Under the pieces are notes generated by a model. The model had not been told where the DNA came from. It saw only the letters and a program-made list of their open reading frames with translations, and made no database searches. A stretch of DNA of 64,000 bases from an uncultured Gammaproteobacteria bacterium (GTDB taxonomy: Bacteria > Patescibacteriota > Patescibacteriia > UBA9934 > CAZDDW01). The position numbers were made by a program, and so were the translations under genes. The stretch lies in assembly GCA_964504365.1 (NCBI GenBank), contig CAZDDW010000001.1:68293-132292 (forward strand). The letters run 5' to 3'. Below, in pieces: positions 13,053 through 56,488 of this stretch. Position 1 is the stretch's first letter; each line of letters opens with the position of its first letter.

Positions 13053-13118
13053 CGGGACCGACAAGCGTGAGCTTGTCAATTGACAGGCTGACGCCTGTCG
13101 ATCCCGCAAGAAAAAAAT

Positions 13119-17293: not shown

Positions 17294-20200
17294 ATGTTTG
17301 GACTTAGAAAATCAATCAAAAAATTCTTGGTAGCTACAGTTTTATCTTTGTTTTTGTTCCTGAGCACCGCATCAGGATTTTTGCTTTTTGCTGAACAGAC
17401 CAATGCTCAGACAGACGACGCTTTAATTGGGGTTGAGCAAGGTATTCGTGGTGTTGTTTCTCCGCTTTCTGATCCAGCGCAGAACTTAGCCGATATTGTT
17501 AAAACAGTTCGAAAAGAAATAATTAAAACAAAATTAACCATTGCTCTTAAAACAGTTTTGGTAAATTTGTTTAGTTTTGTTTTGAACAGATTGGCTTATG
17601 ACGCGGCCACTTATTTGGCAGCTGGTGCAACAGGACAGGAACCAGGGTTTGAATATAAGAATGCTGGTGAATATTTTGCTGACCTTGGTTTGGACGTTGC
17701 CACCAGTGCTTTCGATTCTTTGGGCGAGGTTTTAGATGAGGCTTTTGAAATCGAGTTTGATATTTGTGATCCAGGAAACCCAATGGTCAAGCTTGGCTTG
17801 CAATTTGGTATTGCTTCAGCATATCAGCGACCTGAACCGCGATGTGACTGGTCAGAGTTTACAAGTAATTGGGAGGCCTCGTTAGCCAGTTTTCAAGATT
17901 ATGCTTTGCTTGGTGAAAACCCAAGCGAATATTTTATAAAAGAATTTAAAAAAGCTTATAGTCCTGGACAGAGTCAGCTTGATGCTTCAATTAAGACAAA
18001 TGTTCGTGTTCATGAAAAAGTTTGGCAAGCAAAAACTAGGGATTTTTCAAAATCATTATCACAAGGCGGATTTAAAGATGTAACTGATTATATTTCCGGA
18101 AATATTAAAACCCCAGGTGTATTATTACAAGAGCAGGTCGAAGAAGAATTGGTTAGGCAAAAGAATGAACCAGACAAAGAAGCTTGGAAAGCCATTATAA
18201 ATGATAAAGAGTGGTTGGCTAATTCCGGTTTATCAATGGGCTCAGTTTTCTTAAATACTTTTCTTTCGAAATTGATGTCAGGAATCTATTCTGGTTTGGT
18301 TGAACCTGATCCAACAGATTTTGATTATTTTGATATGGATGACGTAACTGTTGGTACCGGAGGAAGAGAAGCCGCAGAAGAAGCCTACTCAGATTTGTTA
18401 ACCGCAGAGTTTTTGCCGCTTGATGATTTTAATGCTCTGAATGAATTAGTGGCTTGTCCCGGGTCTGATTCAAGAAATTTGTTTAACTGTGCTGCGGACA
18501 CGTCATTAACAACAGCCTTGAGTCGTGCTGAGTCTGGTGCGCCAATGACAGTGCAAGAAGCACTTGAAGAAGGGTTGTTGCATGGAGAGTGGCCATTGTA
18601 TCCCTCAGATGATTTTGGTAGTAACCAGGATCCGTATTGTTACACATATGGATATTGTTATGGAAACTTGGTTAAGATGAGAAAGTTTAGGATTATTCCT
18701 GTTGGTTGGGAAATTGCTGCAAACTCACCATACAACACAAGCACAAACCCAATTACTTTACAGGAAGTTGTTGATGGGTTTAATGACTGTGGTCCTGATG
18801 GTGCAATCGGTCCAAACTATCCTTGGTGTCACTTGATTGATCCAAACTGGGTTTTGAAAGCACCACAAAGCAGTTGTCCATTTGCTGCTCCGGGTGAACT
18901 TTTGGCCAGCTCAATGACTGGAATTCGTTTACCAAGCTGTGCTGACATGACTACTTGTATTGCTGAAGACCAAGAGGGAAACTGTGTTGGTGGCGAAGCC
19001 TATTGTACGCGCGAGAAAAATACTTGGCGTTTCCGTGGTGATGAGTGCCCTGAAGAGTATGCTAGTTGTTTGAGTTTTACTAACGCCAACACTAACGAGC
19101 TTGGAGATTGGCTCTTGAACACGGTTGATTTTGATTCTTGTACTGCTGATAATGCGGGCTGTCGTTGGTATCGGACCAATAAGTATCTTGATGATGAAAG
19201 TTACGAGTGGTTGCCAGCGGAAACTGAATATATAACATTTGATGAAGATATTGATACAGAAGCCTACCTGGATCGTAGATACTTAAACAATGATGCGCTT
19301 GAGTGTTCTGAAGACAATGCAGGCTGTACTCAGTTGATAGAGAAGGGTGATGATGTGGTGTTGAACGTGGTAGCTAATCCAAGTTTTGAAGATGATGAGA
19401 ATGATGACGGTCTACCAGATGCTTGGAACAACCTGACTGAAGATACTTATCAAGAGGATGAGTCTGGTTCAGTTTACGGATTGGATTATATTACCAGTAC
19501 TGACAACCTGATTTATATTACTCAGGAAAATATTGTTTTATCTGCGAGTCGTTTTTATACATTTAGTTTTTATGCCAACGAGACTGATGCAAGCATTCCT
19601 AATGACACGGTTGTTTGGATCTCGCTTGATGACAAGGATGATCCAACGAACATTGTGAGCCTAGAAGGAACTGCTATACTGGGGGATTGCGAATTAGATC
19701 CAAATGATTTTAGCAATGTTGCTTTAGGGATTGAGGATATTGGCGATGATCCAGAACGATTCGAATGTACCTTTACCACTCCTGCTTTTGATACGTTTGC
19801 CACGATTTGGATTTATACAGCTGAGGGAGAGCACGCCTTTGATGCTTTCCAACTTGAAGAAGGCTCGGTCTTACACGATTATCAAGCTGGTTACGGAGAT
19901 GCAACTTTGGCTTATGAATATTTACTAATGCCACCAGCCTATCTAGGATGCACCGGTGCAGAGACTGATCCGGAAGAGTGTGCGAATTATGCTCAGATGT
20001 GTACTTCACAGGAGGTTGGTTGTGAACTGTATACCCCAGCCGATGGTGATCCATCAGTTCCGGCGATTGTCTCTGAGTTAGATGAGTGTCCTTCTGAATG
20101 TGTTGGTTATGACACCTACAAGCAAGAGGCAACTTTGTACGATGATGAAGATTTTCCACTTTACTTTATTCCTGACACAGCCAATTCATGTACTGAGTCA

Positions 20201-23200
20201 GACGTTGGTTGTGACGAGTTTACAAATTTAGATTCTATAGATCTTGGTGGAGAGGGGTTGGAATACTATACATATTTGCGTGCTTGTACTAGCGCAGATG
20301 ATACAACTGAAGAAGCCACATTCTTTAGCTGGGAAGGCTCAGCTCAAACCGGCTACCAGTTGGTTAGTTGGGATTTGTTGGAATCGGATCTTGGTTCAGC
20401 TACAAAAACATTTGCAGAAAGTGGTGTAGAAGAAGTTAATGTTGGGGCCGCACCATGTATTAATCCAGTTTTATCTGATGAGACAACTTTGGTCTGTGAC
20501 GATGTTAATTATCAGGACGAAGACGGAAATAATGGTTGGACTGCAATTAGTTTGAATTCAGACTGTGATGAGCATGATGATATTTTTGATAATCCTGACT
20601 GCCGTGAATTCTATGACAGTGATGGAAATATCCACTATCGCGAGTTCTCTTTGACAGCCACGATCACTGACCAGTGCCATCCTTACCGAAAGAGCGAGTC
20701 TGCAGAGGAGGACTGTGACGGGTCTGGTGGTTATTGGACTGCTGGTGGCGAGTGTCGTTATCTTGGTTACATTGACGAGAGCACTACTTGTACCGAATCA
20801 GCTAATGGATGCCGATCATATACCGGAGGAGCTGGCCGTAATGCAACCACGATTTTCAGCGATGATGTTGAAGACGATTCTCTTGAAGAATGGTTTGGTA
20901 CAGCTGATGCTGTGATTTCAAACGAATCAGTTGCGGCCGGTGGTCATTCGATTCATGTAACTTCTGGAACCTTGGATCTACTTTACTTGATTGAGGATGA
21001 TGCAACAGATTGTGAAGAAGGCGAGGTTTGTGATCTAGAAGACCCGGCAGGTACTGGGGCCAACTGTGAGATTATTGGATCTGAAGATTTGGATGACTGT
21101 GGTTCATTGGTTGGTGCTTTGGTTCAAGGCAAAACTTACATTTTATCTTTCTGGGCCAAGGGTACAGAAGGAATTGGTGCTCGATTTATTGCTGATGGAG
21201 GTAATGGTGATTTTGAAACTTTTGAAGACGAGCTAGTTGATTTGTCTACTGGCTGGCAGCTTTATGAACTTGGTCCATTAGATACTACAGATTTTGAAGA
21301 TTTTGATGACACGGCCTTGTTGCGTATTCGTGGCACAGGTGAATACTATATTGATAATATTTACCTCAAAGAAGTTGAAGACAGTATCACTTTGATCAAA
21401 GATTCCTGGGTTACTCCATCAACTTGTGACGAAACACCGGAAGGAGTTGAGGCTGAACAGTTCTACCTTGGTTGTGAGGAATATTCTGATGGAGCTGGTG
21501 ATGATTTTTATCTGTACCGTTTCTCAAACATTTGTAGCGAGAGTGCTGTTGGTTGTGAATCATTCTTTACAACTCAGAATTCTGAATCTACTTTTGCTCA
21601 GGCTTATAATGTGACTTGTAGCACTGTTGGAGGAGGAATAGTTAGCACACCAACGGCTTGTGAGATGAGCGGACAGACTGTTTGTACAATTGGTGTTTCA
21701 CAAAGCAGCTGTCAGTTTGACTGGGATGGTGCCTTGCCTAATCCGTTACCGATAGACGGGCATATTTCACTTGGTCCAGAAGCTGTGGTTGTTCCAAATG
21801 ATATTGATGTTTTCTTAATTAACGACAGCTCAGCCACTTGTTCATCAACTTACATGGGTTGTACTGAGTTTGGTCAACCAACGTTTAATCAGGACAAGTC
21901 TGAGGTAACTGAGTTTGAGTCGATTTATTTATACGATTTGCCAGATGAATATGAGACCACGTTGTGTAACCACGAAGCTTTGTTCTGTGAGGCGTGGGAA
22001 ACAACTGCTGATGGAAATTTCTACTTTAAGGATCCGATTGACCAAACGTGTGAATGGAAAGATTCAGCTACTATTAATAATCAAACTTATTATGGTTGGT
22101 TCCGTGCTGGCACAAATGATCCATGTTATTACACAGACGAAAATGACAAGGTTGGTAGTGCATATTTGATTGCTGGGGAAGAGTTTGGTGTTTGGCGCAA
22201 TGGTGATGACGATTTTGCTGGTTGGGCAGCCGAGTGTGGTTCTCAACACGATCGTTGTACTGAATTCCTGGATCCAGTTGATACTTCTGAAGGCGACTTC
22301 CCACAAGGTGTGCCTTACTATTATGTAAATAATGATGAGCTGTCTGAGGAAAGCCTGGCCACATCACAGCAGTGTAGCGGCGAGGTAAGTCAGAACTTTG
22401 GCTGCATTCTATTTGATAACACAACTGACTCAGAGCTGCGTTATAACGCTAGCGCTTCTTACGTCTCCTCGGTCCGGGCTGACTTGCTTTTCGGTGATGC
22501 TCAGTATTCACCACAAACGCCAATCACCTGTGACACTGATTACGGCGGACAGATTGATACACCAGACTTAGGTACAGTTGATCTTTGCTGGAGCCAATGT
22601 CGTTACCCGGATTACACCGGTATCATGAATCGATTTAATCGAGATGATGTCTTTAATTCAAACTATACCTTTACAACTTCTTGTGTTGTTGATTTAGATT
22701 GTCCTCCAACCCAAGATCCTTGGGGCAATGAAGTTTCTGGAGAATGTGTGCTTTTGGATGGTGAACCAACCCCGGCTGCTGATATGCCAACAGATAAGTT
22801 GGTTAATGATACAAATACAATTTTGAAAGTTTACCGCGACCGTGAGTGTGCTGAGTGGTTAGCATGTTCCTCATATTCTTATAACTGGGACGAGAAGTCA
22901 GGAAGTTGGAAAAAGGTTTGTGCGGATTTGCGGTCTTGTAATGATTACAATGGTTATGGTGATAGTGCGACCTGTACAAATTTCCCAGTGCTTGATCCAG
23001 ATCCTTTGACCATGGCTGATTACGCTGCCCGTGACACAACTTGGTTTGGTCATGACTATTCCGGCTTCACTATTCCAGACAGTATTCCGGTTGATTTCTT
23101 GGATCAAGTAAACCTGACCCCGTCTGGGCAGTGTCACAATGGTATTAATTTTACAACACGAACTGGTCACGATGGTGAGCCTTGGCCTAGATCATGTGCG

Positions 23201-26200
23201 GCTGATGACGATTGTTCGACTGGTACTTGTGAGGCAAACTCCGAAAGTGATTATAGATTAGCTTATGTGGCCGGGTCGTGTGATGAAGATAATGGGGAGC
23301 TGTGTACTTTAGGAATTTGTTCTGACACTGGTGAGGCCTGTGCTGAGGATTCTGAGTGTAATAATAACGACTGTGTGGTTGGTTATTGTAAGCGCACATG
23401 GATTGGTTCTAGTTGTCTTGAGAATTCTGATTGTGTTGGCCAAGGTTATGGGCATCTGACTTCTTGTGATAACGGAGTATGTGTAAATGACCCTGATGAC
23501 GAACAGACTGGGACCTGTACAGTTGATGCTAACTGTCAGGGTGAGCTTGATCGTGATGGTGATGGAATAAATGATATTTTTGCCGAGTGTGCTTTGTATG
23601 AAGAGTCACACGTCGGAGCCTGTAGTAATAGTCAGTGTATTATCGATCAATACGGCGATGCCTTTAGTATTAATAATTCTGAAGAGGTTGAGTGCCGTGG
23701 TTACCCAGAAGCTGATGCCCCGTTCCCACATGACTTGGTTACGGAGTGGAAAGGTTTTGTTCGGAACCCGGATCCAGTTGTGAGCTATGACACCTTACAA
23801 AGTTTACTTGAATCGAATAATCATGATCAAAGTAATATTGCTGATGCTGTGCCGTACGATTTAACATATAGCTATTCGAATGTAAACATTTGTGGTCCAA
23901 ACGATGAAGATTGTCTGTGCTCATACAACAAGGCCAGTTTTGGTAACGGTATTTATACACGTTACTTTGAAGCTGGTCGGACATTGAGTGAGGTTCAGGA
24001 TGATGCTGGAGACGGTTTAGGTTTCCAAGGTATTTGTATGGGTGGAACTCAGGAGGGTAAGAAGTGTTCTGATGATTCTGGTTGTGGTGGTGATTTTGCC
24101 ACTTGTCAGATTATTACCAACTATGACACCCACATGGGTTGGGAAGGTTATTGTTTGGAGCGTGATAGTTCGATTAACCGTTGGGGAAATCAAGATGGTC
24201 CAGGGGTATGTCTGACTTGGCTACCAGTTGATCAGCTGGTTGGTTCAACTGATTTGTACGGTAAGTACACTGAAGCCGGCTTCCCGTTGGAGAATGAATA
24301 TTATTGTGTTGAGACCGGGTACTATCGTGACTTCTATACAGCGGGTATTAGTATGGACGAGGATGGTATTCCTCAAACAAGCGTAAATACACAGATTGCT
24401 TGTGCTTCTACGCAATATGGTGAATATCGACGAGATGATGATTGGTGGGATCTTGATCCACAAGATAGGGTTCCAGACAATGCCTTGAATGGCTGTTGGC
24501 AGTATGTCTACTGCCCTGAGGGTTATAAGGGAATTGTTGCTTTTCCAGTAGACCAAGATGATGGTTATCAGGATGGATATAATACCAGGTGTATGGATGA
24601 CGACGATGGTGGTACTAATGACTTCTATGGTGATGATGCTGGAAACGGTTGGCACGATTGTCCATATATTTGTATCCCGAATGACTCTTATACTCCTGCG
24701 GGAGAAAGTTGTGAACAAGAATGGAACACGAGTTTTAACAGAGACTTTGATGCTAGCGGAACTGTGGAAGAAGATGAAGAAGAATCATATTTTGGTACAC
24801 CAGTGAAATGGGCTGTAAAGTTGGGCGATGATGATGGTGTGCTGAATACCTTTAATTGGCATCGTTGTGTGCGCCGAGGTGTGCCAGTTGCTCGAGATGT
24901 AACTGATTATGAAATGGATTGGCATACAGCTTTCTGGGTTGGTGATCCAACTGATCCTGGTGTACAAGTTGGAGGAAAATACGTTGCTGGTCAAACCGAA
25001 GAAGAGTGTTATGATGCTGCCAGTTTGCATGAATTAGATTGTGAGCTTCTGAGTGAAGCGGTTTATCCGGATGATTGGCCAACGCCAGGTATGGGATTAG
25101 ACTTCTCGTGTTTTTACTCAGAGGATGAGTTGGTATGTGATGATAATCGTGAGGGGTTGGCGTTTGGTAGGCTCGCAGCGACAAATCATGTTGGGTTCTG
25201 GGGGCTTGATTACACAAATATAAATGTAAACGCTGGCGATGACACTGGAGCATTCTATGAATATCTTGGTTGTTTTGCCATGGCTCAAGTTGCCACTGAT
25301 GATATGTCATCAAACAACAAGGCTTACACGCAGCGCTTGTTGTATGATGGTGATGACAGTTATGCCACACAAGAACCAGGTGATGGAGTTTATAATAACC
25401 TGTACATTACTAAGGACGATGGTAATCCGTCATATTCACCAGCCGGTGCCCTGCCTTTTGAAGATTATTTTGAACCAAAATCAACTCACCAGGCCGGGAC
25501 CTTATATATCTTTGATAAAGACATGTTCTATAACGACCCTGATTTGGTAGATGATGAAGACGTTGATTCAGGCCCAATTCCTGTTTTGGCCTGTGATGAT
25601 GGAACCGAGGCTCTGGGTGCAATTGGATTGCATACGGTTTATGACGAAGGAACTGATTGTGATGGCGACGACATTGGTTTTTATCCAACGAATTATCAGT
25701 GGTCATTTATTGACAATGATAATCTATTGACTTCACTTGGTTTGTCTTATGAAGTGTTAAGGGGTACAGACGAGGCACAGATTGAAGACCGCGCTCAAGG
25801 AGCGTATGCAAACACTTTTGATGACATCGGGCAAGCTGAGAACATGCAGTCATCGTATGAATTATTGGGGCAGTTCTTCAATAAGGTTTTTGAAATTTTC
25901 TTGTGGGAATGGAAAGTCGAGAATGATAATTTCCAAGACATTGCACCACAGGCTGGCCAAGGAGCATACTTCAGTCTTGATGATTGTGTTGCAGATGATA
26001 ATTGTGAGCTATATTTTCCTGGAAGGCAGCAAGCCTTTGACGGTGAGTTTGACGATGGTACGCCGTTTGATTTTGCTGGAGTGGAAGATCTGATGTTTGG
26101 AAAGAGCTATGCATATGATCAGGATCCGGTGCTAGAAAATCCGCAAGATTATGAAACTGAACCAACTGCGCCGACAACGGTTTCGCTTGGGCAGTGTTGG

Positions 26201-26890
26201 GGAAGTTATTGTCGTGAGGATGAAGAAGACGAGATAACTTTGAATGATCAGGATCATGGAAACTATACGATTGGTGGTGGTGCGGCTCATGTGACCATGG
26301 AATTCTTTATTAAGGCTGATCCAAACCAATTCCCAATCCGTAATATTATTGTTGATTGGGGTGATGAAAGCACTCTGGTTGGAAGCCAAGAGCCTGATAA
26401 TTTCTACAAAGCTTATCGAGGTTTGCAAAGTGGTGAGCAAGAGAACAGTATTTGTAGTGCTGAGGGTGCTTGGGGCGAGACTTCAGAATCATGTATTTCT
26501 GGATACGTGACTTATGTTCATGATTACGTTTGTCCGCAGTGGTGGTTGGATGATGAAGCAAGGGATGAGTGTGAGTATCATGATGCTCCGGATGGTAAAG
26601 AGATTGTTCTGAATGCCCCGTGTAAGGATGCTAGTGGGTCATACTGTGTTTACCAACCACGCGTGCATATTCGTGATAACTGGGGTTATTGTTCTGGTTA
26701 TTGTGAAGGTGGAGATGATTTAGGTGGTGATCTTTGTTATGATGGTCTGAACGCAGGTGCCGGATATAATGAGTGTGATTTAGATTGTCCAAGCGGCAAC
26801 TGTCCTAAGGCGCTATTCTATGGGGATGATGCAGATTATGATAACCCATGGGTCTACTACGATGGTCAAGTAATGGTAAGTCCAAATTAA
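17294..26890 (+). CDS. giant (3198 aa) secreted/surface Cys-rich repeat protein
   Basis: Uninterrupted 9.6-kb ORF with an N-terminal signal/TM segment. Recurring xGC(E/D/R/T)x(F/Y/L)T Cys motif, for example NAGCRWYRT, EVGCELYTP, DVGCDEFTN, ANGCRSYTG, AVGCESFFT, YMGCTEFGQ. Opposite-strand ORFs are short and spurious. Confidence 0.75.
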   Translation: MFGLRKSIKKFLVATVLSLFLFLSTASGFLLFAEQTNAQTDDALIGVEQGIRGVVSPLSDPAQNLADIVKTVRKEIIKTKLTIALKTVLVNLFSFVLNRLAYDAATYLAAGATGQEPGFEYKNAGEYFADLGLDVATSAFDSLGEVLDEAFEIEFDICDPGNPMVKLGLQFGIASAYQRPEPRCDWSEFTSNWEASLASFQDYALLGENPSEYFIKEFKKAYSPGQSQLDASIKTNVRVHEKVWQAKTRDFSKSLSQGGFKDVTDYISGNIKTPGVLLQEQVEEELVRQKNEPDKEAWKAIINDKEWLANSGLSMGSVFLNTFLSKLMSGIYSGLVEPDPTDFDYFDMDDVTVGTGGREAAEEAYSDLLTAEFLPLDDFNALNELVACPGSDSRNLFNCAADTSLTTALSRAESGAPMTVQEALEEGLLHGEWPLYPSDDFGSNQDPYCYTYGYCYGNLVKMRKFRIIPVGWEIAANSPYNTSTNPITLQEVVDGFNDCGPDGAIGPNYPWCHLIDPNWVLKAPQSSCPFAAPGELLASSMTGIRLPSCADMTTCIAEDQEGNCVGGEAYCTREKNTWRFRGDECPEEYASCLSFTNANTNELGDWLLNTVDFDSCTADNAGCRWYRTNKYLDDESYEWLPAETEYITFDEDIDTEAYLDRRYLNNDALECSEDNAGCTQLIEKGDDVVLNVVANPSFEDDENDDGLPDAWNNLTEDTYQEDESGSVYGLDYITSTDNLIYITQENIVLSASRFYTFSFYANETDASIPNDTVVWISLDDKDDPTNIVSLEGTAILGDCELDPNDFSNVALGIEDIGDDPERFECTFTTPAFDTFATIWIYTAEGEHAFDAFQLEEGSVLHDYQAGYGDATLAYEYLLMPPAYLGCTGAETDPEECANYAQMCTSQEVGCELYTPADGDPSVPAIVSELDECPSECVGYDTYKQEATLYDDEDFPLYFIPDTANSCTESDVGCDEFTNLDSIDLGGEGLEYYTYLRACTSADDTTEEATFFSWEGSAQTGYQLVSWDLLESDLGSATKTFAESGVEEVNVGAAPCINPVLSDETTLVCDDVNYQDEDGNNGWTAISLNSDCDEHDDIFDNPDCREFYDSDGNIHYREFSLTATITDQCHPYRKSESAEEDCDGSGGYWTAGGECRYLGYIDESTTCTESANGCRSYTGGAGRNATTIFSDDVEDDSLEEWFGTADAVISNESVAAGGHSIHVTSGTLDLLYLIEDDATDCEEGEVCDLEDPAGTGANCEIIGSEDLDDCGSLVGALVQGKTYILSFWAKGTEGIGARFIADGGNGDFETFEDELVDLSTGWQLYELGPLDTTDFEDFDDTALLRIRGTGEYYIDNIYLKEVEDSITLIKDSWVTPSTCDETPEGVEAEQFYLGCEEYSDGAGDDFYLYRFSNICSESAVGCESFFTTQNSESTFAQAYNVTCSTVGGGIVSTPTACEMSGQTVCTIGVSQSSCQFDWDGALPNPLPIDGHISLGPEAVVVPNDIDVFLINDSSATCSSTYMGCTEFGQPTFNQDKSEVTEFESIYLYDLPDEYETTLCNHEALFCEAWETTADGNFYFKDPIDQTCEWKDSATINNQTYYGWFRAGTNDPCYYTDENDKVGSAYLIAGEEFGVWRNGDDDFAGWAAECGSQHDRCTEFLDPVDTSEGDFPQGVPYYYVNNDELSEESLATSQQCSGEVSQNFGCILFDNTTDSELRYNASASYVSSVRADLLFGDAQYSPQTPITCDTDYGGQIDTPDLGTVDLCWSQCRYPDYTGIMNRFNRDDVFNSNYTFTTSCVVDLDCPPTQDPWGNEVSGECVLLDGEPTPAADMPTDKLVNDTNTILKVYRDRECAEWLACSSYSYNWDEKSGSWKKVCADLRSCNDYNGYGDSATCTNFPVLDPDPLTMADYAARDTTWFGHDYSGFTIPDSIPVDFLDQVNLTPSGQCHNGINFTTRTGHDGEPWPRSCAADDDCSTGTCEANSESDYRLAYVAGSCDEDNGELCTLGICSDTGEACAEDSECNNNDCVVGYCKRTWIGSSCLENSDCVGQGYGHLTSCDNGVCVNDPDDEQTGTCTVDANCQGELDRDGDGINDIFAECALYEESHVGACSNSQCIIDQYGDAFSINNSEEVECRGYPEADAPFPHDLVTEWKGFVRNPDPVVSYDTLQSLLESNNHDQSNIADAVPYDLTYSYSNVNICGPNDEDCLCSYNKASFGNGIYTRYFEAGRTLSEVQDDAGDGLGFQGICMGGTQEGKKCSDDSGCGGDFATCQIITNYDTHMGWEGYCLERDSSINRWGNQDGPGVCLTWLPVDQLVGSTDLYGKYTEAGFPLENEYYCVETGYYRDFYTAGISMDEDGIPQTSVNTQIACASTQYGEYRRDDDWWDLDPQDRVPDNALNGCWQYVYCPEGYKGIVAFPVDQDDGYQDGYNTRCMDDDDGGTNDFYGDDAGNGWHDCPYICIPNDSYTPAGESCEQEWNTSFNRDFDASGTVEEDEEESYFGTPVKWAVKLGDDDGVLNTFNWHRCVRRGVPVARDVTDYEMDWHTAFWVGDPTDPGVQVGGKYVAGQTEEECYDAASLHELDCELLSEAVYPDDWPTPGMGLDFSCFYSEDELVCDDNREGLAFGRLAATNHVGFWGLDYTNINVNAGDDTGAFYEYLGCFAMAQVATDDMSSNNKAYTQRLLYDGDDSYATQEPGDGVYNNLYITKDDGNPSYSPAGALPFEDYFEPKSTHQAGTLYIFDKDMFYNDPDLVDDEDVDSGPIPVLACDDGTEALGAIGLHTVYDEGTDCDGDDIGFYPTNYQWSFIDNDNLLTSLGLSYEVLRGTDEAQIEDRAQGAYANTFDDIGQAENMQSSYELLGQFFNKVFEIFLWEWKVENDNFQDIAPQAGQGAYFSLDDCVADDNCELYFPGRQQAFDGEFDDGTPFDFAGVEDLMFGKSYAYDQDPVLENPQDYETEPTAPTTVSLGQCWGSYCREDEEDEITLNDQDHGNYTIGGGAAHVTMEFFIKADPNQFPIRNIIVDWGDESTLVGSQEPDNFYKAYRGLQSGEQENSICSAEGAWGETSESCISGYVTYVHDYVCPQWWLDDEARDECEYHDAPDGKEIVLNAPCKDASGSYCVYQPRVHIRDNWGYCSGYCEGGDDLGGDLCYDGLNAGAGYNECDLDCPSGNCPKALFYGDDADYDNPWVYYDGQVMVSPN

Positions 26891-30321: not shown

Positions 30322-30925
30322 GTCATTCTCCTCAAAGTTGTAACTATTTGACCTATGCCAGACTTCAGACTGAGAAAAAACCTTATCATTTTAGTCATGT
30401 CAAGTCAATCCGGATGTTAAAAAACCCTGACATAGAAAATAAACTTGAAATAGGAATTATGATTTTGTTAGTGTCTGGCGTACATGACAAAAATTTGGCT
30501 AAGTTATGCACAATTTCGATTTGACAGTGCTTTTTTGCCATGATGAACTGAGAGTAGGAATTCCAAACACATTCATATTTGAACCTTTCAATCTAGGGTT
30601 AGGCAAAAGACTTGCGAGGTCTTTGCCACGGGCGATTCTTAAAACGAGATCTTGTTTACCCGGGCATTCTGTTCTTGGTAGGAAACTTTTATGACCCTCA
30701 GGTCATGCTAAGACAGGGTAATCGACAAACAGGAAAACGTTTACACACTTGGATTGTTTAATAGTATGCGGGTTGGGGGGAGCCAACTGTAGCTATTAGA
30801 TGATCAACAAGTGGGGCTCCCACGCCCCCGAGACCAGCTGTTCAATTACGGCTCCCATGGTCCCGGAGGCGACCGATCTATTCCAGATCGGCCCGTCTCT
30901 TGTTTTTCCAAACAAGGGATTTGTA

Positions 30926-32920
30926 ATGCGTCTGTTTTACCTGTGTGTTTCTTCTGTCTTGGTGGTGCTGCTTGGTGCACTGGCCTGTAATAACATCGTG
31001 CCCATGGGTGGGTCAGATGATCCGCCGACCAGCGATGGTGGGTTGGGCGGTGATGTCCAGCCACTGCCCGAAGGTGTTTTCCAACTACCTTTTGCGTCTG
31101 GTGAAATCCATCTTTGTACTCAAGGGGTTGGTGGCAGTTACTCTCATGATGCGGCTTCAACCTGGTGTGGTTTGGATCTGGATTCTTCAAACAGTGCTTA
31201 CGAGGAGTTGTACGCTCCAGCAAGCGGCATTGCTTACGTGCACTACGACAACTCGGATACTGGGTTTGGTTACCACATCAACATCGACCTTGGTGATGGG
31301 ACTTACTTTGTTCTTGGGCACATGGCTGAGATTTTTCTTGAGGACGCCAGTGAGGTGGTTGTTGGGATGTTGCTTGGTTACGAGGGGTGCACTGGTAGTT
31401 GCACCGGTGATCATGTGCATTTCGACTTGCATGAGGGCGATGCTACCATGATGGCCCAACACGGCACTTCAATACCAACTAGTTACTACGTGACCGATGC
31501 AACCAGTGGCAGTGAGTACATGCATCTGCCCAGTGATCAGTTTGTCTGCGATCTGTACTCTGGCCATTACTACGAGTCACACCTGACCGTAAATACCTGG
31601 CATCCAGATGGCACGCTTCTAATCTACCCGTCCAGCGGGGAAGTCTTCGTGGTTGACCGTGGTCAGTTGCACTGGATCGAGAACGAGGAAGTGTTTTGGA
31701 GCTATGGCTTTGACTTTGCTGATGCGGTGGCTATTTCTGAGCGTGAGTTGTGGTGTTGGGAAGAGTCTGGTCAGAGTATTTCTGAGCCAACTGAATATCG
31801 CTCTGTTGAAGACGAAGATGGAGTGACTTGGTTGGTTTATGAACTTGCTGACAACCCTGGTCGTTATCGACAGGTTGTTCCTGACGAGGTGTATCCGGAG
31901 ATCTTGAATAGCTGGGGTGTGAGTATCACCACGACTTACGCGCACGAAGATGGAGCGGCCATGCTATCTGACTATCCAGTGGCCACTGGTTGGGCCCGTT
32001 TGCGTGACGGTACCCTGGTTCAGGAGATCGGATCAAGCACGATCTATGTCGTGCACGAGGGCTATGCCTTGCCGATCAAGGATTGGGAAACCTATCTGAT
32101 GCTCGGCTTTGGTGATCGCTTTGTGTTCGAGGTACCAAGTGGCACACTTGGTTATGCTGTTTCTGAGATCGGAAGCTGTGATGCCAATGTTGGCTGTATC
32201 GGAATAGAGACGGTCACTGGTTGTGGTGGGGATCTGTCGATTGACTTTGTTGACGACGATCCGGTGTTCGAAGATGATGACGACGTGGTAGATGATGATG
32301 ATTCTGAATCGTCTGCTGACGATGACGATGACTCAGATACGACCGGGGACGACGATGACACAGTCGATCTCGGGGACGACGATGACATCGTTGATGATGA
32401 CGATGACACAACCGAGCTCAGCGATGACGACGACAGCTTTGGTGATGACGACATCGCCGACGATGATACAACAGAGATCACGGATGATGATGACGACACC
32501 GAGCCCTTGGGGGATGACGATGACACGACTGAGGAAGAGGTGGTCGAACCAGATCCGGATTGGCTGTTGTTAGAGATCGAGGCCACGCTCTCTGGAGCGC
32601 CGGCTGATTACGTCGAACTTTCAGGCGAGCTGCTCGATCAGCACGACACTCCTGCTGGGGGTGGCTTCTGGTGGGCAGCGCTCGAGACCGTGTATGACGA
32701 AAACACAGTTTACTGGTCTGCCTATGTCCAGAATGAGTGGAGCTTTCGCTACTCTGTCGAATACGAACGCTACGGCGTGACTTCATGGAGCTGTTTGGCC
32801 CCGTTCCCTCCAGGTACAATCACCATGACGGTTGATGCCCGGCTTGAAGGTCAGACCATCACGACCGAAGCTATTGATAACCACCTGGGTGGTTGTGAAC
32901 TATATGTTCCAGTGCCATGA
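30926..32920 (+). CDS. M23 (LytM-type) peptidase-domain protein with a long poly-Asp linker and C-terminal domain
   Basis: HxxxD (GYHINID) and HxH (GDHVHFDLH) M23 motifs. Signal peptide with Cys. About 100 aa of D-rich repeats (DDDDTVDLGDDDDIVDDDDDTTE...). Start set to MRLFYL at 30926. Confidence 0.65.
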   Translation: MRLFYLCVSSVLVVLLGALACNNIVPMGGSDDPPTSDGGLGGDVQPLPEGVFQLPFASGEIHLCTQGVGGSYSHDAASTWCGLDLDSSNSAYEELYAPASGIAYVHYDNSDTGFGYHINIDLGDGTYFVLGHMAEIFLEDASEVVVGMLLGYEGCTGSCTGDHVHFDLHEGDATMMAQHGTSIPTSYYVTDATSGSEYMHLPSDQFVCDLYSGHYYESHLTVNTWHPDGTLLIYPSSGEVFVVDRGQLHWIENEEVFWSYGFDFADAVAISERELWCWEESGQSISEPTEYRSVEDEDGVTWLVYELADNPGRYRQVVPDEVYPEILNSWGVSITTTYAHEDGAAMLSDYPVATGWARLRDGTLVQEIGSSTIYVVHEGYALPIKDWETYLMLGFGDRFVFEVPSGTLGYAVSEIGSCDANVGCIGIETVTGCGGDLSIDFVDDDPVFEDDDDVVDDDDSESSADDDDDSDTTGDDDDTVDLGDDDDIVDDDDDTTELSDDDDSFGDDDIADDDTTEITDDDDDTEPLGDDDDTTEEEVVEPDPDWLLLEIEATLSGAPADYVELSGELLDQHDTPAGGGFWWAALETVYDENTVYWSAYVQNEWSFRYSVEYERYGVTSWSCLAPFPPGTITMTVDARLEGQTITTEAIDNHLGGCELYVPVP

Positions 32921-32950: not shown

Positions 32951-32977
32951 GACCCGATTAACCATCGGGTCTTTTTA
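32951..32977 (+). terminator. intrinsic terminator after the M23 peptidase gene
   Basis: GACCCGAT-TAACC-ATCGGGTC followed by TTTTTAC. Confidence 0.7.
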
Positions 32978-32990
32978 CTCTCTAACCTAC

Positions 32991-33011
32991 AACCAAAAGA
33001 TAACCGATCGG
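32991..33011 (+). repeat. left 21-bp inverted repeat flanking the 33041-33571 gene
   Basis: AACCAAAAGATAACCGATCGG. Its reverse complement matches 33588-33608 at 20 of 21 positions. Confidence 0.8.
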
Positions 33012-33040
33012 ATATATTTTGGTTGTAGTAGTGTAAAGAA

Positions 33041-33571
33041 ATGCAAAATAAATCGTATACAAAAAAAGAATTAGATCGACTTGTAAAAGAAATGCAATTG
33101 CTTGAGCGGCCGCTGTCTCAATGGGACTCCAATGCTTTAAAAGGTCATATTAGTCATCGAGCAAAGGTTGCGGCCCAAAAAAGGCTGAATCGACGGATTG
33201 AACAATATGATCGGTTGCGTGCACAGAAAAATCTGGTTGAACAAGGTTTGTTGAACCTTGAAAGGATAGGTAATCGAGTATATGCATCTCTGACCTTTAA
33301 TGGTCATATTGAGGCCTTAAAGGGGAGAATAATGAGTTCAGATAATAAATTGCCAGATGGTAGAGAATGTCTGGTTAGCTTTGATGTTCCGGAACATGTC
33401 AGGAATGTGCGCTGGCATATTCGTAGATTACTAAAGAATGCTGGATTTGAAATGGTTCATAAAAGCCTTTGGAAAAGCAAAAGTGATGTAGTTAAAGATT
33501 TTGTTGAGCTTATCGGATATCTTGGTATACAAGACTGGATTAAGGTTTACGTGGCAGAGCAAAAAACTTGA
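33041..33571 (+). CDS. hypothetical protein with a C-terminal Cas2/VapD-like fold signature and an N-terminal coiled-coil extension
   Basis: C-terminal ~80 aa (LVSFDVPEHVRNVRWHIRRLLKNAGFEMVHKSLWKS...IQDWIKVYVAE) follows the Cas2 pattern (hhhYDV...RR.R..hh...G.RhQ.SVF...h.hY). No CRISPR array is nearby. Confidence 0.4.
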   Translation: MQNKSYTKKELDRLVKEMQLLERPLSQWDSNALKGHISHRAKVAAQKRLNRRIEQYDRLRAQKNLVEQGLLNLERIGNRVYASLTFNGHIEALKGRIMSSDNKLPDGRECLVSFDVPEHVRNVRWHIRRLLKNAGFEMVHKSLWKSKSDVVKDFVELIGYLGIQDWIKVYVAEQKT

Positions 33572-33587
33572 TGTTACCAAAAAATTG

Positions 33588-33608
33588 CCGGTCGGTTATC
33601 TTTTGGTT
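33588..33608 (+). repeat. right 21-bp inverted repeat
   Basis: CCGGTCGGTTATCTTTTGGTT. Confidence 0.8.
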
Positions 33609-33711
33609 GCACATGTTTTGTGTGAGGTGTTGTAAGGATATAAATTAAGCTTAAAATGATCCACATTTAAGCAAGCAAAGCTGGTAAAATTATGCTATAC
33701 TAAGAACACGT

Positions 33712-36552
33712 ATGAAGCGCTTAATTATAAGGGCAACATCCTTCTTGTTAAGGTTAAAAGAAAGCAAAACAAAACCGTGGTTGGTTTTGGTCGGATTTGG
33801 TGTTGTTTTAACAGCCATTTTTTTGTTGCCTGAAGTTGTGTTTGCAACAGGTGAAGTAGGAGGAGAACCATCCGTAGTTGGTTTCATGGAGATGGCTATT
33901 GCCTGGATTGCGGGGTTCTTGGTTACTGTGGCCAAGATTCTTGGTTTAGGAATCGTTACTTTAATCAGTTTGATCATTGTACCGGTAATGCAGTACAACA
34001 ACTTTGCTAACTCAGCTGTGGTTGGTACAGGTTGGGCTGTTGTTCGTGACACAATGAACATTGGTTTTGTTATCGTGTTGCTCGTGATTGCTTTTGGAAC
34101 AATTATCGCTGGTGAATCAGGGTTTGGCGGACGTTTTAATTGGAAACAGAATTTACCGCGATTATTAATTTTTGCCATCTTGATCAACTTCAGCAGAATG
34201 CTTTGTGGACTAATGATTGATTTTGGTCAGGTGGTCATGCTGACTTTTGTAAATGCTATTCGTGATGTGGCTGGTGGAAACTTTATTCAACTGTTTGGTC
34301 TCCAAGATATAATTTCGATTAGCTCTAGTACGGTTGAGGACATGATTAATCAGGGTGAAGGACTAGACTCTTTTTGGTTGTTAGCATCGGCATTTGCTGC
34401 TGCTTTTATGATGGGTGTTGTTTTCCTAACCCTGATCTTCCTTTGCGTAATCTTGGTAATCCGCATCGTGACTCTTTGGATTTTGGTCGTGCTTTCACCA
34501 ATAGCATTTTTCCTAGGTGGTGCTGAAAAAACTTTAGGTAGTCAAGCTGGGGGAATGTACGCCGAGTGGTGGAAAAATTTTACGTCAATGGTTTTGATCG
34601 GTCCAGTTCTGGTTTTCTTCTTATGGTTAGCTTTGGCTGTGGCCGGAAGCGGGAGCATTGCCGCTTCAGAAGGTTTTACAACAACTAACTCTGGTGAAGC
34701 GGCTGGTTCGGCCGGTATTCCATTAGCAATTTTCGAAATGGATAAACTGATCAGCTTTGTTATTGGTATTGGTTTGCTTTGGGCTGGTTTTGATGCTGCT
34801 GGACGTATTGCTGGTGGCATGCCTGGTCAAGTTAAAGGAATTGTTAGTAGTTTGATTAAACCACAAGACGCTTTGCGCATGACTCAACGTTTGGCCATGA
34901 AAGGAGTTGGTGCTGTTGCCCCTGTGGCTGGTTTAGCTGCCGGGGGAGTTGGTTTGGCTGCTAGGGGAACAGGAAAAGTTGTTGCCGCACCGATCAAAGC
35001 AGGTGTGGCCGTAGGTAAGGCTGGTGTTGGTGTTGCAAAATGGGGTGCAAAAACAGGATACGCCGGTGCCAAGTGGGGTGCAAAAACAGGATACGCCGGT
35101 GCCAAGTGGGGTGCTAAGAAAGCAAAACCGTATGCGACCCAGATTCCAATTGGTAAAGGTAAAAAAGTTCAAGATATTGATAAAGTAGTTTCTGGCGAGG
35201 TGGCTAAGGCTGGAGACTGGTTGAAAACAAAAGGTGTTGCTGGTCGTTTTGCTGGTCGATATGTTAAGTCCAAGGCAACAACTCGAGTGCAGTCTCAGTA
35301 CAAAAAAGAACGTGAAGACGCTCAGGCACAGATGGGAAATTTTGCCGGTATGACCAAGGACGAAGTTTTGGAAGAAGCTCGCCGTGTTGCGGTTACACCT
35401 GAGGGACGAGCCCGTCAGCGCGCTGCTCGTTTGTATGCCAGGACAAATGGAAATATTCGCCGAAAGATGAGCACTGATGAGTATGCAGAGATGGTTGAAA
35501 GGGATAAAAAAGATGGGGCTGATAAGATGTGGAAAGGTGACAAGGCTACTAACAAGGAACTCAAAGATGCAGACTTGGCACGTATTGATGCGATTAAGGA
35601 CCCAGACCGAAGGAAGAAGGTAATGAAAGGGAAAACAGATGCAGAGGTCGTCAAAGGTTTGGACTCAACAGCTATTTCTGACGATGATACAGGGGAAGTA
35701 TGGAAGATGCTTGATGATCCAAAAAAGAAAATACGGCACGCAAACAAGGATTACACCGGAGCTGAATATCTTGAAAAATTTGGTACGTCTGCCCAGAAGG
35801 CAGCCGTTAAGAAGGTGAAAGGTATCGATGCCGATGCACAAGCCAAACTAGTTAGTGATCATGGACACTCAGCAACCACGGCTAGTGGAAAAGTTGCAGG
35901 TGCAAACCATGCCACAAAGCGATACTGGGCTGAAAATAATCCAGAGAAAATGTCATCTTCCGGATTGGCGGCTGATGGTGGTCAGTTAGCAGCTGAAATT
36001 GCCAAAGATACCAATAATCCAAAAAAGGCTGCGTTCTTGCGGGAGATTGAGGGTGATAAACAAAAGAAGGCTGCGTTCTTGGCTGGAACAGCTGGTAAGG
36101 GAACCACAAGTGCTGAGACGGCAAATATCCAGGCCAGCAGCTATGTAGTTAGTGGCGGGAACTTAAGTCAGTTGGGAAGCAACAGTGCAGAACGTCGAGG
36201 AGCGATTGATGCTTTGAAAGGAATTGATGCAGCCGCAATTGGTCAGCTAGCTGCGCAATCAGCAAACAAAACAATGCGGGCTCGCAACCCTGCTGATGGT
36301 GCTGCAGCATCAGCAGTATTTACAGATTTATTCAGTCAGATTGATAGTGCATATGTTTCTGGGCTAGATACCACTCACGGTTCTGCTGGTACATCGGATG
36401 AGGACAAGGCGGCTCTTGAAGGCACGGTCAGACAGTTGCTAACCACAATCACCCAGGCACAGAAAAAACGCATGGCTCCTGCTTCAGCCCCTGCGATGAC
36501 CACGCTTCAGAGTCAGTTACAAACAACCTTGAGCGCAATGAAGGCTCGATAA
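33712..36552 (+). CDS. VirB6/TrbL-like polytopic T4SS channel protein with a long K/A/G-rich C-terminal extension
   Basis: N-terminal ~450 aa with a signal peptide and multiple TM segments in TrbL-like arrangement. C-terminal ~500 aa hydrophilic, with a tandem KWGAKTGYAGA repeat. Confidence 0.55.
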   Translation: MKRLIIRATSFLLRLKESKTKPWLVLVGFGVVLTAIFLLPEVVFATGEVGGEPSVVGFMEMAIAWIAGFLVTVAKILGLGIVTLISLIIVPVMQYNNFANSAVVGTGWAVVRDTMNIGFVIVLLVIAFGTIIAGESGFGGRFNWKQNLPRLLIFAILINFSRMLCGLMIDFGQVVMLTFVNAIRDVAGGNFIQLFGLQDIISISSSTVEDMINQGEGLDSFWLLASAFAAAFMMGVVFLTLIFLCVILVIRIVTLWILVVLSPIAFFLGGAEKTLGSQAGGMYAEWWKNFTSMVLIGPVLVFFLWLALAVAGSGSIAASEGFTTTNSGEAAGSAGIPLAIFEMDKLISFVIGIGLLWAGFDAAGRIAGGMPGQVKGIVSSLIKPQDALRMTQRLAMKGVGAVAPVAGLAAGGVGLAARGTGKVVAAPIKAGVAVGKAGVGVAKWGAKTGYAGAKWGAKTGYAGAKWGAKKAKPYATQIPIGKGKKVQDIDKVVSGEVAKAGDWLKTKGVAGRFAGRYVKSKATTRVQSQYKKEREDAQAQMGNFAGMTKDEVLEEARRVAVTPEGRARQRAARLYARTNGNIRRKMSTDEYAEMVERDKKDGADKMWKGDKATNKELKDADLARIDAIKDPDRRKKVMKGKTDAEVVKGLDSTAISDDDTGEVWKMLDDPKKKIRHANKDYTGAEYLEKFGTSAQKAAVKKVKGIDADAQAKLVSDHGHSATTASGKVAGANHATKRYWAENNPEKMSSSGLAADGGQLAAEIAKDTNNPKKAAFLREIEGDKQKKAAFLAGTAGKGTTSAETANIQASSYVVSGGNLSQLGSNSAERRGAIDALKGIDAAAIGQLAAQSANKTMRARNPADGAAASAVFTDLFSQIDSAYVSGLDTTHGSAGTSDEDKAALEGTVRQLLTTITQAQKKRMAPASAPAMTTLQSQLQTTLSAMKAR

Positions 36553-46659: not shown

Positions 46660-48033
46660 ATGGAAACATTGATTATTATCATCGCTATTCTTTTTTGTGT
46701 TTTTTTAGCTATTCGTCCGGTGCGTTGGTTGAATATGGCCACCGGACCTTTGCTGATCCTGGCTTTGCTTTTTATTTTTCAGGTTATTGATCTAGGAACG
46801 ATTTGGCAGGGAATTATTGATAATGGTCAAATGCAACCATGGAAGATTTTAGTTATTTTCTTTTCCGTTGCCTATGTCAGTATTAGTACTGACATGACCG
46901 GAATTTTTGATTATATTGCCTATCGTGTTATTCGGGCAGCCAACGGTAGTGGGTTTAGATTGTTTGTCTTCTTTTACATTTTTGCTTGTCTTTTGACTAC
47001 GGTTACATCGAATGACATAGTTATTCTAACTTTGACACCAATTATTTTTTATCTTGGACGACACGCTAAGTTGAACGTTGTTCCGTTGTTGTTTGCTGAA
47101 TTTTTTGGAGCAAATGCAGCCAGTATGCTGCTTTTTATAAGTAGTCCAACCAATATTATTATTGGGACATCTTTAGGTATTGGTTTCTCTGAGTATTTAA
47201 GCAACATGTGGTTACCAACTCTTGTGGCCATTGTGATCAACTTAGTGTTGCTGGTTGTGGTTTTTCGAAAAAAGATTACTCAGAAATATACTGTTAAAAA
47301 AAGTTCGAATTATCATGTGCGAAATTGGTTTGATGCTTTGATGAGTTCCGGGATGTTGCTTTTGATGTTGGTGTTATTGATTCTGTCCGACAAGTTTGAT
47401 CTAAGTATTTGGATTATTACTCTCACTTTTGCCGCGATCTTCATTGTCCAGGATCTTGTTTTCGGGCTGTACTATCATATTAAAGAATCACGACTTTCTC
47501 CTGCTCAGCTAAAGAAAGGCAAAGATGTTTATGGGATTCCTGAAAATAAGAATGAATTTTGGATGGCCTGGCAACGTGTCCCTTGGAAGATCTTGCCTTT
47601 TATTGCTGTAATTTTTGTTTTGGTTCAGGGGTTAAATGATTATGGGTTTATCGACATCTTGGCCACGGTTTTATCTAATGTGTCGACCACGGTTTTCTCT
47701 GGAATTTTTATTATGGGGTCTGCAGCTTTTGTTTTGGCCAACATGATCATTGATCAGCCCATGACGATTTTAATGAGCAACGTTTTGACCAGTGACAACT
47801 TCTTGGTTAGTGAATCAGTAAGAAATGCTAGTGCCTACGCGATTTTGATCGCCAGCAACCTAGCTACGAATTTGACTATTATTGGAGCCCTGGCTGGATT
47901 AATGTGGAAACAAATATTAAGAACTAAAGGAATTAAGATTAGTTATCGCGACTTTTTGATCAAAGGCCTACAGATTACACCAATCGTTTTTGTGGTAACA
48001 TGTTTGACACTATGGTTCAGCTTTCTGATTTAG
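46660..48033 (+). CDS. ArsB/NhaD-superfamily anion permease (CitMHS-like)
   Basis: Polytopic, with TSNDIVILTLTPI and SSPTNIIIG motifs. Start set to METLIII. Confidence 0.5.
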   Translation: METLIIIIAILFCVFLAIRPVRWLNMATGPLLILALLFIFQVIDLGTIWQGIIDNGQMQPWKILVIFFSVAYVSISTDMTGIFDYIAYRVIRAANGSGFRLFVFFYIFACLLTTVTSNDIVILTLTPIIFYLGRHAKLNVVPLLFAEFFGANAASMLLFISSPTNIIIGTSLGIGFSEYLSNMWLPTLVAIVINLVLLVVVFRKKITQKYTVKKSSNYHVRNWFDALMSSGMLLLMLVLLILSDKFDLSIWIITLTFAAIFIVQDLVFGLYYHIKESRLSPAQLKKGKDVYGIPENKNEFWMAWQRVPWKILPFIAVIFVLVQGLNDYGFIDILATVLSNVSTTVFSGIFIMGSAAFVLANMIIDQPMTILMSNVLTSDNFLVSESVRNASAYAILIASNLATNLTIIGALAGLMWKQILRTKGIKISYRDFLIKGLQITPIVFVVTCLTLWFSFLI

Positions 48034-50087: not shown

Positions 50088-50141
50088 GTTTGCTATAATA
50101 GAAAAGAACATTATTTAACATAAACATAAATCATTATATTT

Positions 50142-51320: not shown

Positions 51321-51325
51321 AAATT

Positions 51326-52459: not shown

Positions 52460-52472
52460 TTGATGTTCCAGA

Positions 52473-55207: not shown

Positions 55208-55209
55208 AA

Positions 55210-56484: not shown

Positions 56485-56488
56485 GCGT

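Follow-up and report, generated by a model that had tools for sequence, protein, structure and literature searches.

A small PaaX-related gene bracketed by two matching palindromes, a candidate autoregulated unit that recurs in Candidate Phyla Radiation bacteria

The 64,000-nucleotide stretch analysed here, hereafter the window, is taken from contig CAZDDW010000001.1 (assembly GCA_964504365.1, forward-strand positions 68,293 to 132,292), and near its middle lies a small gene that has a palindrome on either side. The open reading frame (ORF) occupies positions 33041-33571 on the forward strand (531 bp), starts with ATG, has in-frame stops close upstream and encodes a PaaX_M-domain protein of 176 amino acids. 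A first-pass annotation of the window had described the gene as bracketed by 21-bp inverted repeats, and this description holds. The left repeat, AACCAAAAGATAACCGATCGG, lies at 32991-33011, 29 bp 5' of the ATG; the right repeat, at 33588-33608 and 16 bp past the stop codon, is the reverse complement of AACCAAAAGATAACCGATCGG with 20 of 21 bases identical. Searching the window with a 20-mer and allowing up to three mismatches returned three matches, every one at the small gene, where shuffled sequence predicts 0.02 and none of 100 shuffles yielded three. Further copies of the 21-bp repeat, which the first-pass annotation had proposed to look for, were not found away from the gene in the window.

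Both repeats belong to larger local palindromes, imperfect in sequence, of which they form the outer halves and whose centres are CCGATCGG or CCGGTCGG. The 5' palindrome, the proposed operator, spans 32987-33028 (no strand assigned) and is centred between 33007 and 33008 on the core ATAACCGA/TCGG, the slash marking the centre; its left half reads CTACAACCAAAAGATAACCGA and its right half TCGGATATATTTTGGTTGTAG, with 19 of 21 positions paired. The 3' palindrome, a proposed second binding site and hairpin, spans 33576-33609 (again no strand), begins 5 nt past the stop codon and is centred between 33591 and 33592 on CCGG/TCGG; its halves read ACCAAAAAATTGCCGG and TCGGTTATCTTTTGGTTG, with 12 of 15 positions paired, and its outer (right) half provides the 20/21 match to the outer half of the 5' site. 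The two sites are direct repeats of one another (34 nt, 82%) and simultaneously inverted repeats (34 nt, 88%). In both of them the degenerate half is the one that faces the gene. The left, outer half of the 5' site is perfect and the gene-proximal half (GGATATAT) is degenerate; the symmetry of its arm is lost, reading GGATATATTTTGG, and a -10-like TATATT at 33012-33017 lies within it. The mismatches of this site are A.A and G.A. Searching the window for the core TAACCGATCGGTTA with up to two mismatches gave the 5' site itself as the sole match.

The unit formed by the gene and its palindromes (32987-33609) is set between two features that do not belong to it. On the left, the intrinsic terminator of the upstream M23-peptidase gene (32951-32977, forward strand; GACCCGAT-taacc-ATCGGGTC followed by TTTTT, identified in a terminator scan) forms the boundary of the promoter space for the small gene. 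On the right, the boundary is the conserved promoter region (33645-33711, forward strand) of a membrane-protein gene of a type IV secretion system (T4SS); it contains TTAAGCTTAAAATGATCCACA and the extended -10 element TGCTATACT at 33693-33701, 10 nt 5' of the ATG at 33712. Between the terminator, ending at 32977, and the T4SS promoter, beginning at 33645, there is no second plausible ORF, and the palindromes occupy the flanks. Only 63 bp separate the terminator from the ATG of the small gene and the 42-bp palindrome takes up most of them, therefore the promoter of the small gene must overlap the palindrome. A sigma-70 consensus scan found no convincing promoter for the gene, and a -10 element inside the palindrome is therefore something that we infer.

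The protein was placed by profile and fold searches, which were informative; a direct sequence search of the PDB gave nothing meaningful, and PHROGs gave no match. Residues 106-174 match PF20803 (PaaX_M, 'PaaX protein central Cas2-like domain') with 43.5 bits (cutoff 24, E 3.4e-11), a domain that is present in all 22 relatives listed. The NCBIfam PaaX equivalog TIGR02277 gives a partial match of 26.9 bits against a cutoff of 264.55, in which residues 63-159 are aligned to model positions 42-138 of 279. Cas2 models score weakly: 18.7 bits for TIGR01573, under its cutoff of 24.5, and 17.5-18.7 bits across some 35 residues for the PADLOC models; the family profile matches Cas2 sequences in the PDB with E values of 0.09-0.26. 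An AlphaFold2 model made from 21 relatives (predicted local distance difference test score 89.8) has E. coli PaaX as its top structural match, and its C-terminal domain fits Cas2 folds. Helices are predicted at residues 6-21, 27-34 and 39-67, followed by a beta-hairpin wing (71-84) and a linker helix (86-99). The long helix, the wing and the next helix are confidently predicted and align to the wing region of PaaX; the N-terminal region gave no Pfam winged-helix match above threshold. No match to the PaaX_C effector domain was found even at E values up to 10, and the protein stops three residues past the Cas2-like domain.

The first-pass annotation had seen a standalone Cas2-like protein with a Cas2/VapD-like C-terminal half behind a coiled-coil extension. 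The fold of that half is supported by the structure model and by PF20803; its identity as Cas2 is not, the score for TIGR01573 falling short of the cutoff. Instead of a coiled coil, the N-terminal helices are predicted to be the helical part of a divergent winged helix, as the structural match to PaaX and the alignment to the early positions of TIGR02277 suggest. The extra, predicted winged-helix half and the PaaX_M match together group the protein with PaaX, and its sequence thus marks it as a putative DNA binder of the PaaX type in truncated form, as opposed to a Cas2 protein standing alone.

Five residues (D115, P117, R124, F136 and S142) are invariant in the family, whose motif C.V.FD[IV]PE..R..R...L..AGF....S[VL]W mirrors LLMFDMP...RKFRKFL..GF....SVY of type II-A Cas2; D115 is invariant in an alignment of 46 sequences and aligns with the Asp that ends strand beta-1 in Cas2 (motif FDMP/YDV). 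One rival reading takes the gene for an orphan Cas2, or for a toxin of the VapD type, left over from a CRISPR or toxin-antitoxin module that has degraded. The weak Cas2 profile matches, the Cas2-like fold, the conserved Asp and the naming of some records as 'CRISPR-associated endonuclease Cas2' all point that way. The protein, however, remains below the Cas2 cutoffs and is fused to a putative DNA-binding half, and it is this predicted winged-helix half, with the PaaX_M match, that places it with PaaX. There is no CRISPR array in the window, as had been observed at first pass, and no cas domain, cas1 included, was found in the 31 window ORFs (a subset of the total) scanned against Pfam. A nuclease of the toxin-antitoxin kind, one of the functions first suggested, is unlikely because there is no partner ORF. 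Finally, the 1613 sequence clusters of the family described below have a fairly uniform architecture of 150-210 residues, unlike decay products. We consider an origin from such a degraded module to be highly improbable.

A profile search over 1.84 billion cluster representatives (clusters at 50% identity) gave the family size as 1613 clusters at E ≤1e-3 and 437 at E ≤1e-10, with lengths of 150-210 residues in nearly all of the 150 clusters listed. The members appear to come mostly from bacteria of the Candidate Phyla Radiation (CPR), and source databases name them either 'CRISPR-associated endonuclease Cas2' or 'DNA-binding transcriptional regulator PaaX'. Roughly the first 60 residues are hypervariable, and conservation is found in the wing and the Cas2-like domain. 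For the surrounding DNA we collected 7 loci through a protein database (29-67% identity to the window protein), 10 from a genome collection and 60 from metagenomes, which together gave 66 unique loci and 465 kb. The genome collection was scanned with a tight alignment, A3, as seed, the 46-sequence alignment being too divergent for this; peptide patterns from the N-terminus gave no matches in it. IMG/VR viral contigs and phage records yielded no relatives, and a plasmid collection gave one weak match, from an actinomycete. A 200-residue ORF after the TrmB gene of the window (6774-7376) was considered as another member of the family, since in locus L012 the family gene comes after TrmB, and was rejected with an hhalign probability of 0.2%. 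Our literature search found no paper linking PaaX with Cas2 or with Cas2-like proteins, and the top-ranked papers on PaaX or CPR made no mention of PaaX.

The palindrome-bracketed layout is more general than the window alone could reveal, and recurs across this large CPR family. All seven loci from the protein database have a palindrome after the stop codon and a matching site upstream, the upstream site of L015 being only a short partial match; sites homologous to the 5' site of the window occupy the same place in L001, L003, L004, L005, L012 and other loci. A strong palindrome lies between -40 and +60 nt of the stop codon in 35 of the 66 loci, and all the remaining sequence contains only 39 strong palindromes, several of which are missed flanks of family genes. 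Matched pairs of 5' and 3' palindromes were found in 38 of the 66 loci, with centres 513-690 bp apart and the 3' centre 5-38 nt past the stop in most cases. When half-sites are aligned on the centre, they share C at -3, G at -2 and A at -1 (CGA/TCG), C at -4, C at -14 and A at -13. The centre CGATCG and the CA/TG pair at ±13-14 are thus conserved family-wide, and positions -12 to -5 vary between loci.

At the variable positions, identity is 0.77 between the 5' and 3' sites of one locus and 0.33 between loci, and the best match to a 5' site is its own 3' site in 76% of loci. One metagenome-assembled genome (MAG), H14-bin029_1, contains three paralogues, every one with a palindrome of its own. 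Comparing the window with its L001 orthologue (67% identity, same context), about 14 of the 32 site positions are different, with palindromy and the match to the partner site kept in both. In 14 loci of 7-20 kb, the locus-specific arms were found nowhere else. From the sequences compared, the arms appear to be specific to each paralogue and to co-vary with the variable N-terminal helices of the protein.

In L048 (3785-4850) two family genes stand in tandem, the second of which (4502-4789, 95 residues) lacks the N-terminal half and has its own, different palindrome past its stop (4815-4850). L051 contains a solo palindrome at 1729-1772, reading GTCGTAATTTTGTTGCGG and CCGCAACAAAATTACGAC on either side of its centre, between an adenylate-kinase-like gene and the gene of a 532-residue membrane protein; it lies 1.9 kb upstream of a family gene, differs from the palindrome of that gene at 3 of 16 half-site positions, and could be a regulon target or the scar of a lost cassette. 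The window protein and P0153, the closest relative on a long contig (64% identity; locus L005), co-occur in three samples, JGI 3300009374, ENA ERZ23499038 and ERZ23499064. The two may be paralogues of one genome; the tetranucleotide correlation between window-type contigs (L092-L095) and P0153 was 0.90, a value that did not decide whether they are. Their sites have the inner 16 bp, ATAACCGATCGGTTAT, in common and differ only in the outer arms.

Taking the gene and its surroundings together, we favour, with somewhat better than even confidence, the hypothesis that the unit at 32987-33609 is a mini-PaaX repressor that is self-contained and controls its own expression, with the two private palindromes as its predicted binding sites. 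Having a predicted winged helix, a Cas2-like dimerisation domain and no effector domain, the protein would bind as a dimer to a palindrome of about 32-42 bp at its own promoter, with two DNA-reading heads about 27 bp apart and the CGATCG centre also contacted or required. The bound dimer would shut off transcription of its own gene, the 5' operator overlapping the promoter. We infer this binding and autorepression largely by analogy with PaaX, which is a dimeric winged-helix repressor that blocks its own promoter Px by steric hindrance, and whose operator TGATTC(N27)GAATCA, about 39 bp long, is similar in size to the palindromes described here (PMC9493321). The distribution of imperfections is consistent with a promoter at the 5' site: when deviations from symmetry are totalled over 38 loci, 54 fall in the half of the 5' site next to the gene, and 24, 16 and 15 in the other three halves. 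The start codon itself falls within the right arm of the 5' site, at +12, in about 11 loci.

PaaX of E. coli and Pseudomonas (PDB 8a39, 3l09), the phenylacetyl-CoA-responsive repressor of the paa genes, is the best structural match and has the PF20803 domain and, by prediction, the recognition-helix and wing region in common with the family; the differences are nevertheless considerable. PaaX is about 305-316 residues long, compared with 176 here, and the small protein has neither a PaaX_C match nor a match to the PaaX N-terminal Pfam domain. No paa genes are nearby, a second operator copy follows directly past the stop, operators are specific to the paralogue, and the family appears mostly confined to CPR bacteria. 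A repressor gene bracketed by copies of its own operator is also reminiscent of lambda cI between OL and OR and of other looping repressors, and private, quickly diversifying protein-operator specificities insulate paralogous systems in lambda-type immunity as they may do here. Unlike lambda, there is no phage context and each side has one operator instead of a triplet; the 3' site also faces a convergent gene in about half of the loci, so that there is no outward promoter for it to control.

The 3' copy is probably a second binding site and a terminator at the same time. As a hairpin it would terminate the gene and often do so in both directions; as a binding site it could allow looping between the two sites or act as a roadblock, either of which is plausible. 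Its arms are longer than those of the 5' site (median 17.5 against 13), and of 38 loci, 12 have T-runs and 10 have A-runs next to it, where the background is 8% and the 5' site has such runs in 3 and 1 of the 38, respectively. Mismatches on the coding strand are G.T in 22 and A.C in 13 cases at the 3' site, compared with 29 and 30 at the 5' site. In 15 of 28 scorable loci the next gene downstream is convergent, and for this reason the 3' copy is generally not the operator of a downstream promoter.

Four points weigh against a repressor of this kind. Where the two sites of a locus differ, the change is compensated within its own site more often than expected, in 29 cases, the two alternative patterns having 15 and 9; this count, which is inflated by the palindrome-based selection of sites, may point to selection for a hairpin or cruciform in addition to selection on the half-site sequence. 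Operator turnover as fast as that between orthologues of 67% identity is unusual for housekeeping regulators. No target beyond the gene's own flanks was found in the window, and a regulator of itself alone needs some other rationale. Lastly, a purely structural role in dimerisation does not account for the invariant, Cas2-type D115.

Another possibility is that control is exerted at the RNA level, the palindromes being mRNA hairpins, one at the 5' end over or next to the start codon and one at the 3' end, that an RNA recognition motif-like Cas2 domain binds or cleaves, with translational autoregulation or an effect on mRNA stability as the outcome. Some Cas2 and VapD proteins are ribonucleases, which would suit such a function. 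The centre, forming a loop GAUC, is conserved, and the arms vary and yet stay complementary; predicted hairpins are stable, with energies between -14 and -31 kcal/mol and z-scores as low as -7.8; the ATG in the right arm and, at the 3' copy, the terminator-like runs and the G.U excess would also be expected of RNA structures. Against this, the mismatches of the 5' site show no strand asymmetry, that of the 3' site is only suggestive, and the A.A and G.A mismatches of the 5' site in the window are not wobble pairs. The homologous PaaX binds double-stranded DNA, and the region of its recognition helix and wing appears to be kept; the CA/TG elements at ±13-14, about 27 bp apart, suit the contacts of a dimer on duplex DNA; and a very stable hairpin over the start codon would stop translation even without the protein. 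On balance we regard RNA-level control as quite unlikely and prefer the reading of the sites as DNA operators of the small protein.

The window is chromosomal, containing the genes of NusA, YidC, GroEL, a release factor, RecG, RadA and ClpC, and homologues of the neighbouring 946-residue membrane protein are named Candidatus Uhrbacteria or Patescibacteria. The T4SS-like neighbours noted at first pass, namely PrgI, a VirB4/TraG-type ATPase and a ComF-like protein, are confirmed, and their cluster is the conserved chromosomal CPR T4SS described in bioRxiv 10.1101/2025.01.22.634366, a paper that makes no mention of Cas2. This position suggests that the protein could be a dedicated regulator of the adjacent T4SS/competence-like operon, with the 3' site as the operator of that operon and the gene as a control point at the start of a DNA-translocation locus. 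Both in the window and in L001 the gene adjoins the operon in the same orientation; about 85 bp separate the 3' palindrome from the -10 element of the operon, which lies downstream of it; and other family members have genes for T4SS pilins or coupling proteins no more than a few kb away.

Comparison with relatives largely refutes this, as far as sequence can speak to it. In four relatives (L088-L091) without the gene within 4 kb, the order M23 peptidase, 900-residue membrane protein, protein of about 550 residues, PrgI, TraC-like protein and VirB4 is the same; in L088 and L089 the spacer between the M23 and T4SS genes is just 115-128 bp, and in the window and L001 it has about 670 bp extra, essentially the unit. 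L001 and the gene-less L088 and L089 also have a hairpin similar to the M23 terminator after their M23 genes. The T4SS promoter, with its extended -10 TGCTATA(C/A)T 10 nt 5' of the ATG, is invariant with or without the small gene (window, L001 and L088-L091), and the palindrome does not overlap it. In OZ246408.1, a 1-Mb genome, the family member found lies about 235 kb from the T4SS locus. P0153 is located between a PQ-loop gene and FtsE/X, and other relatives are flanked by TrmB and RadA or follow the gene of a Na/H exchanger; the commonest family context is RecG, family gene, RadA, a position held by other genes in the window, and no neighbouring gene family occurs in more than 6 of the 66 loci. 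The frequent convergence of the downstream gene likewise argues against a shared operator. We therefore think it very unlikely that the protein is a T4SS regulator. The functional tie to a DNA-uptake locus that had been suspected at first is not borne out by the gene-less relatives, by P0153 or by the constant promoter; these comparisons suggest that the gene is an accessory insert between a terminator and a promoter, with no conserved link to the T4SS.

Two further observations concern this neighbourhood. The -10 element only 10 nt 5' of the ATG implies a nearly leaderless T4SS mRNA, and the window, L089 and L090 have in common an upstream element of the promoter, TTAAGCTTAAAAT(C)GATCCACA, which L001 keeps in part. 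A sub-clade of the family (L012, L025, L071, L059 and others) has the order RecG, family gene, convergent RadA and T4SS_pilin/peptidase genes; the corresponding block of the window (48000-56500; RecG, RadA and pilin-peptidase genes) has no family gene, and a 392-residue ORF and a TMEM43-like ORF are there instead.

That the gene is present at this position in L001 and absent from L088-L091, a comparison the first-pass annotation had called for, raises the question of whether the unit moves. According to this explanation, the palindrome-gene-palindrome unit is moved or exchanged as a block, the protein recognising its private terminal palindromes, possibly as extruded hairpins, and its D115 metal site nicking or cutting them; we judge it unlikely, and still a little less likely that the unit is a new small selfish or mobile CPR element whose Cas2-type metal site acts on CGATCG-centred hairpins or cruciforms. 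Mobility would explain the presence and absence of the unit, its diverged copies, the co-diversification of the protein with its ends and the compensation within sites. The support that comes from presence and absence, from variable context and from several paralogues per genome is circumstantial.

The spacer between the M23 and T4SS genes does appear to be a permissive landing site for small genes. At conserved gene order, it contains the unit in the window and L001 and lacks it in L088 and L089; in L090 (3300-3893) it carries a gene for a 197-residue Y1_Tnp-like protein (RAYT/IS200-like) with its own hairpins and terminal inverted repeats AGGAGTGAC...GTCACTCCT, and in L091 (3472-3798) a 108-residue ORF, with no Pfam match on record, that looks like a fragment of a gene of the L090 type. 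Mobility also finds support in the highly variable genomic context, the three paralogues of one MAG, the tandem truncated copy of L048 with its own palindrome, the related solo palindrome of L051 and the invariance of the Cas2-type Asp. The ends, moreover, are private to each copy and fast-evolving, and their palindromy is maintained by compensation within the site, to the extent that a selection-inflated count can be trusted.

Other results speak against mobility. Target-site duplications, which had been named at first pass as a feature to look for, are not visible at the boundaries of the unit. There are no identical or near-identical copies in differing contexts, and all 11 contigs with P0153 share one context; dispersed arms are absent from the window and from the 14 loci of 7-20 kb. 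The protein contains no transposase or recombinase domain: an HUH/Y1 transposase domain (PF01797) was matched in neither Pfam nor NCBIfam searches, and the family alignment has no invariant Tyr. Viral contigs of IMG/VR and phage records are devoid of the family, the weak match in the plasmid collection being the only one of its kind, and the paralogues are old (about 30-70% identity), unlike those of an active insertion sequence. The gene-less loci are distant relatives, with 38-55% identity in the neighbouring protein, at which gain of the gene is indistinguishable from loss.

Among known elements, the IS200/IS605 and RAYT/REP (repetitive extragenic palindromic) systems come closest. Like them, the unit is about 620-700 bp long, has one small ORF and an imperfect palindrome at each end and lies in an intergenic position after a terminator, and a Y1_Tnp-like gene with its own hairpins sits in the very same spacer in L090. 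In contrast to them, it has no HUH/Y1 domain, no dispersed copies like those of REP sequences and no identical copies, and both of its ends are full palindromes of one sequence instead of distinct left and right ends. An integron gene cassette was rejected as an interpretation, the same palindrome being found on both sides with no integrase or cassette array nearby. We accordingly retain the autoregulated repressor as the preferred reading of the unit.

The labels 'CRISPR-associated endonuclease Cas2' and 'PaaX' that many members in CPR bacteria/Patescibacteria carry are misleading; a correct label would describe reduced, putative DNA binders of the PaaX type that lack an effector domain and have no CRISPR context. 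As CPR bacteria have very few regulators, a regulator family as widespread as this one is useful to know. Each gene comes with two copies of what is most likely its own site, so that the more than 1600 clusters form a natural set of protein-site pairs, which could be used to study the recognition code of the fold and the insulation of paralogous regulators. The comparison with relatives also does away with an attractive but unsupported connection to the conserved T4SS and to DNA uptake. If it were true that the protein acts enzymatically on its flanking palindromes, the family would represent a new class of small mobile elements built on a Cas2-like domain.

We made a few additional observations in the window. 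Upstream of the small-gene region, a single giant ORF of 3198 residues occupies 17294-26890 on the forward strand. A 60-bp palindrome at 13050-13109 (24 of 30 pairs, centre TCAA/TTGA) starts from the stop codon of the release-factor gene (11937-13052), and its sequence is unrelated to the palindromes of the small gene. The M23-peptidase protein (30800-32920) has a long Asp-rich region of low complexity (DDDD-x repeats), which is encoded by 27- and 48-bp tandem repeats (32324-32451) and gives rise to a spurious Ser-rich ORF on the opposite strand. Finally, the gene of the 946-residue T4SS membrane protein contains a 33-bp tandem repeat at 35034-35114 (2.5 copies, 95% match) that encodes the peptide AKWGAKTGYAG.

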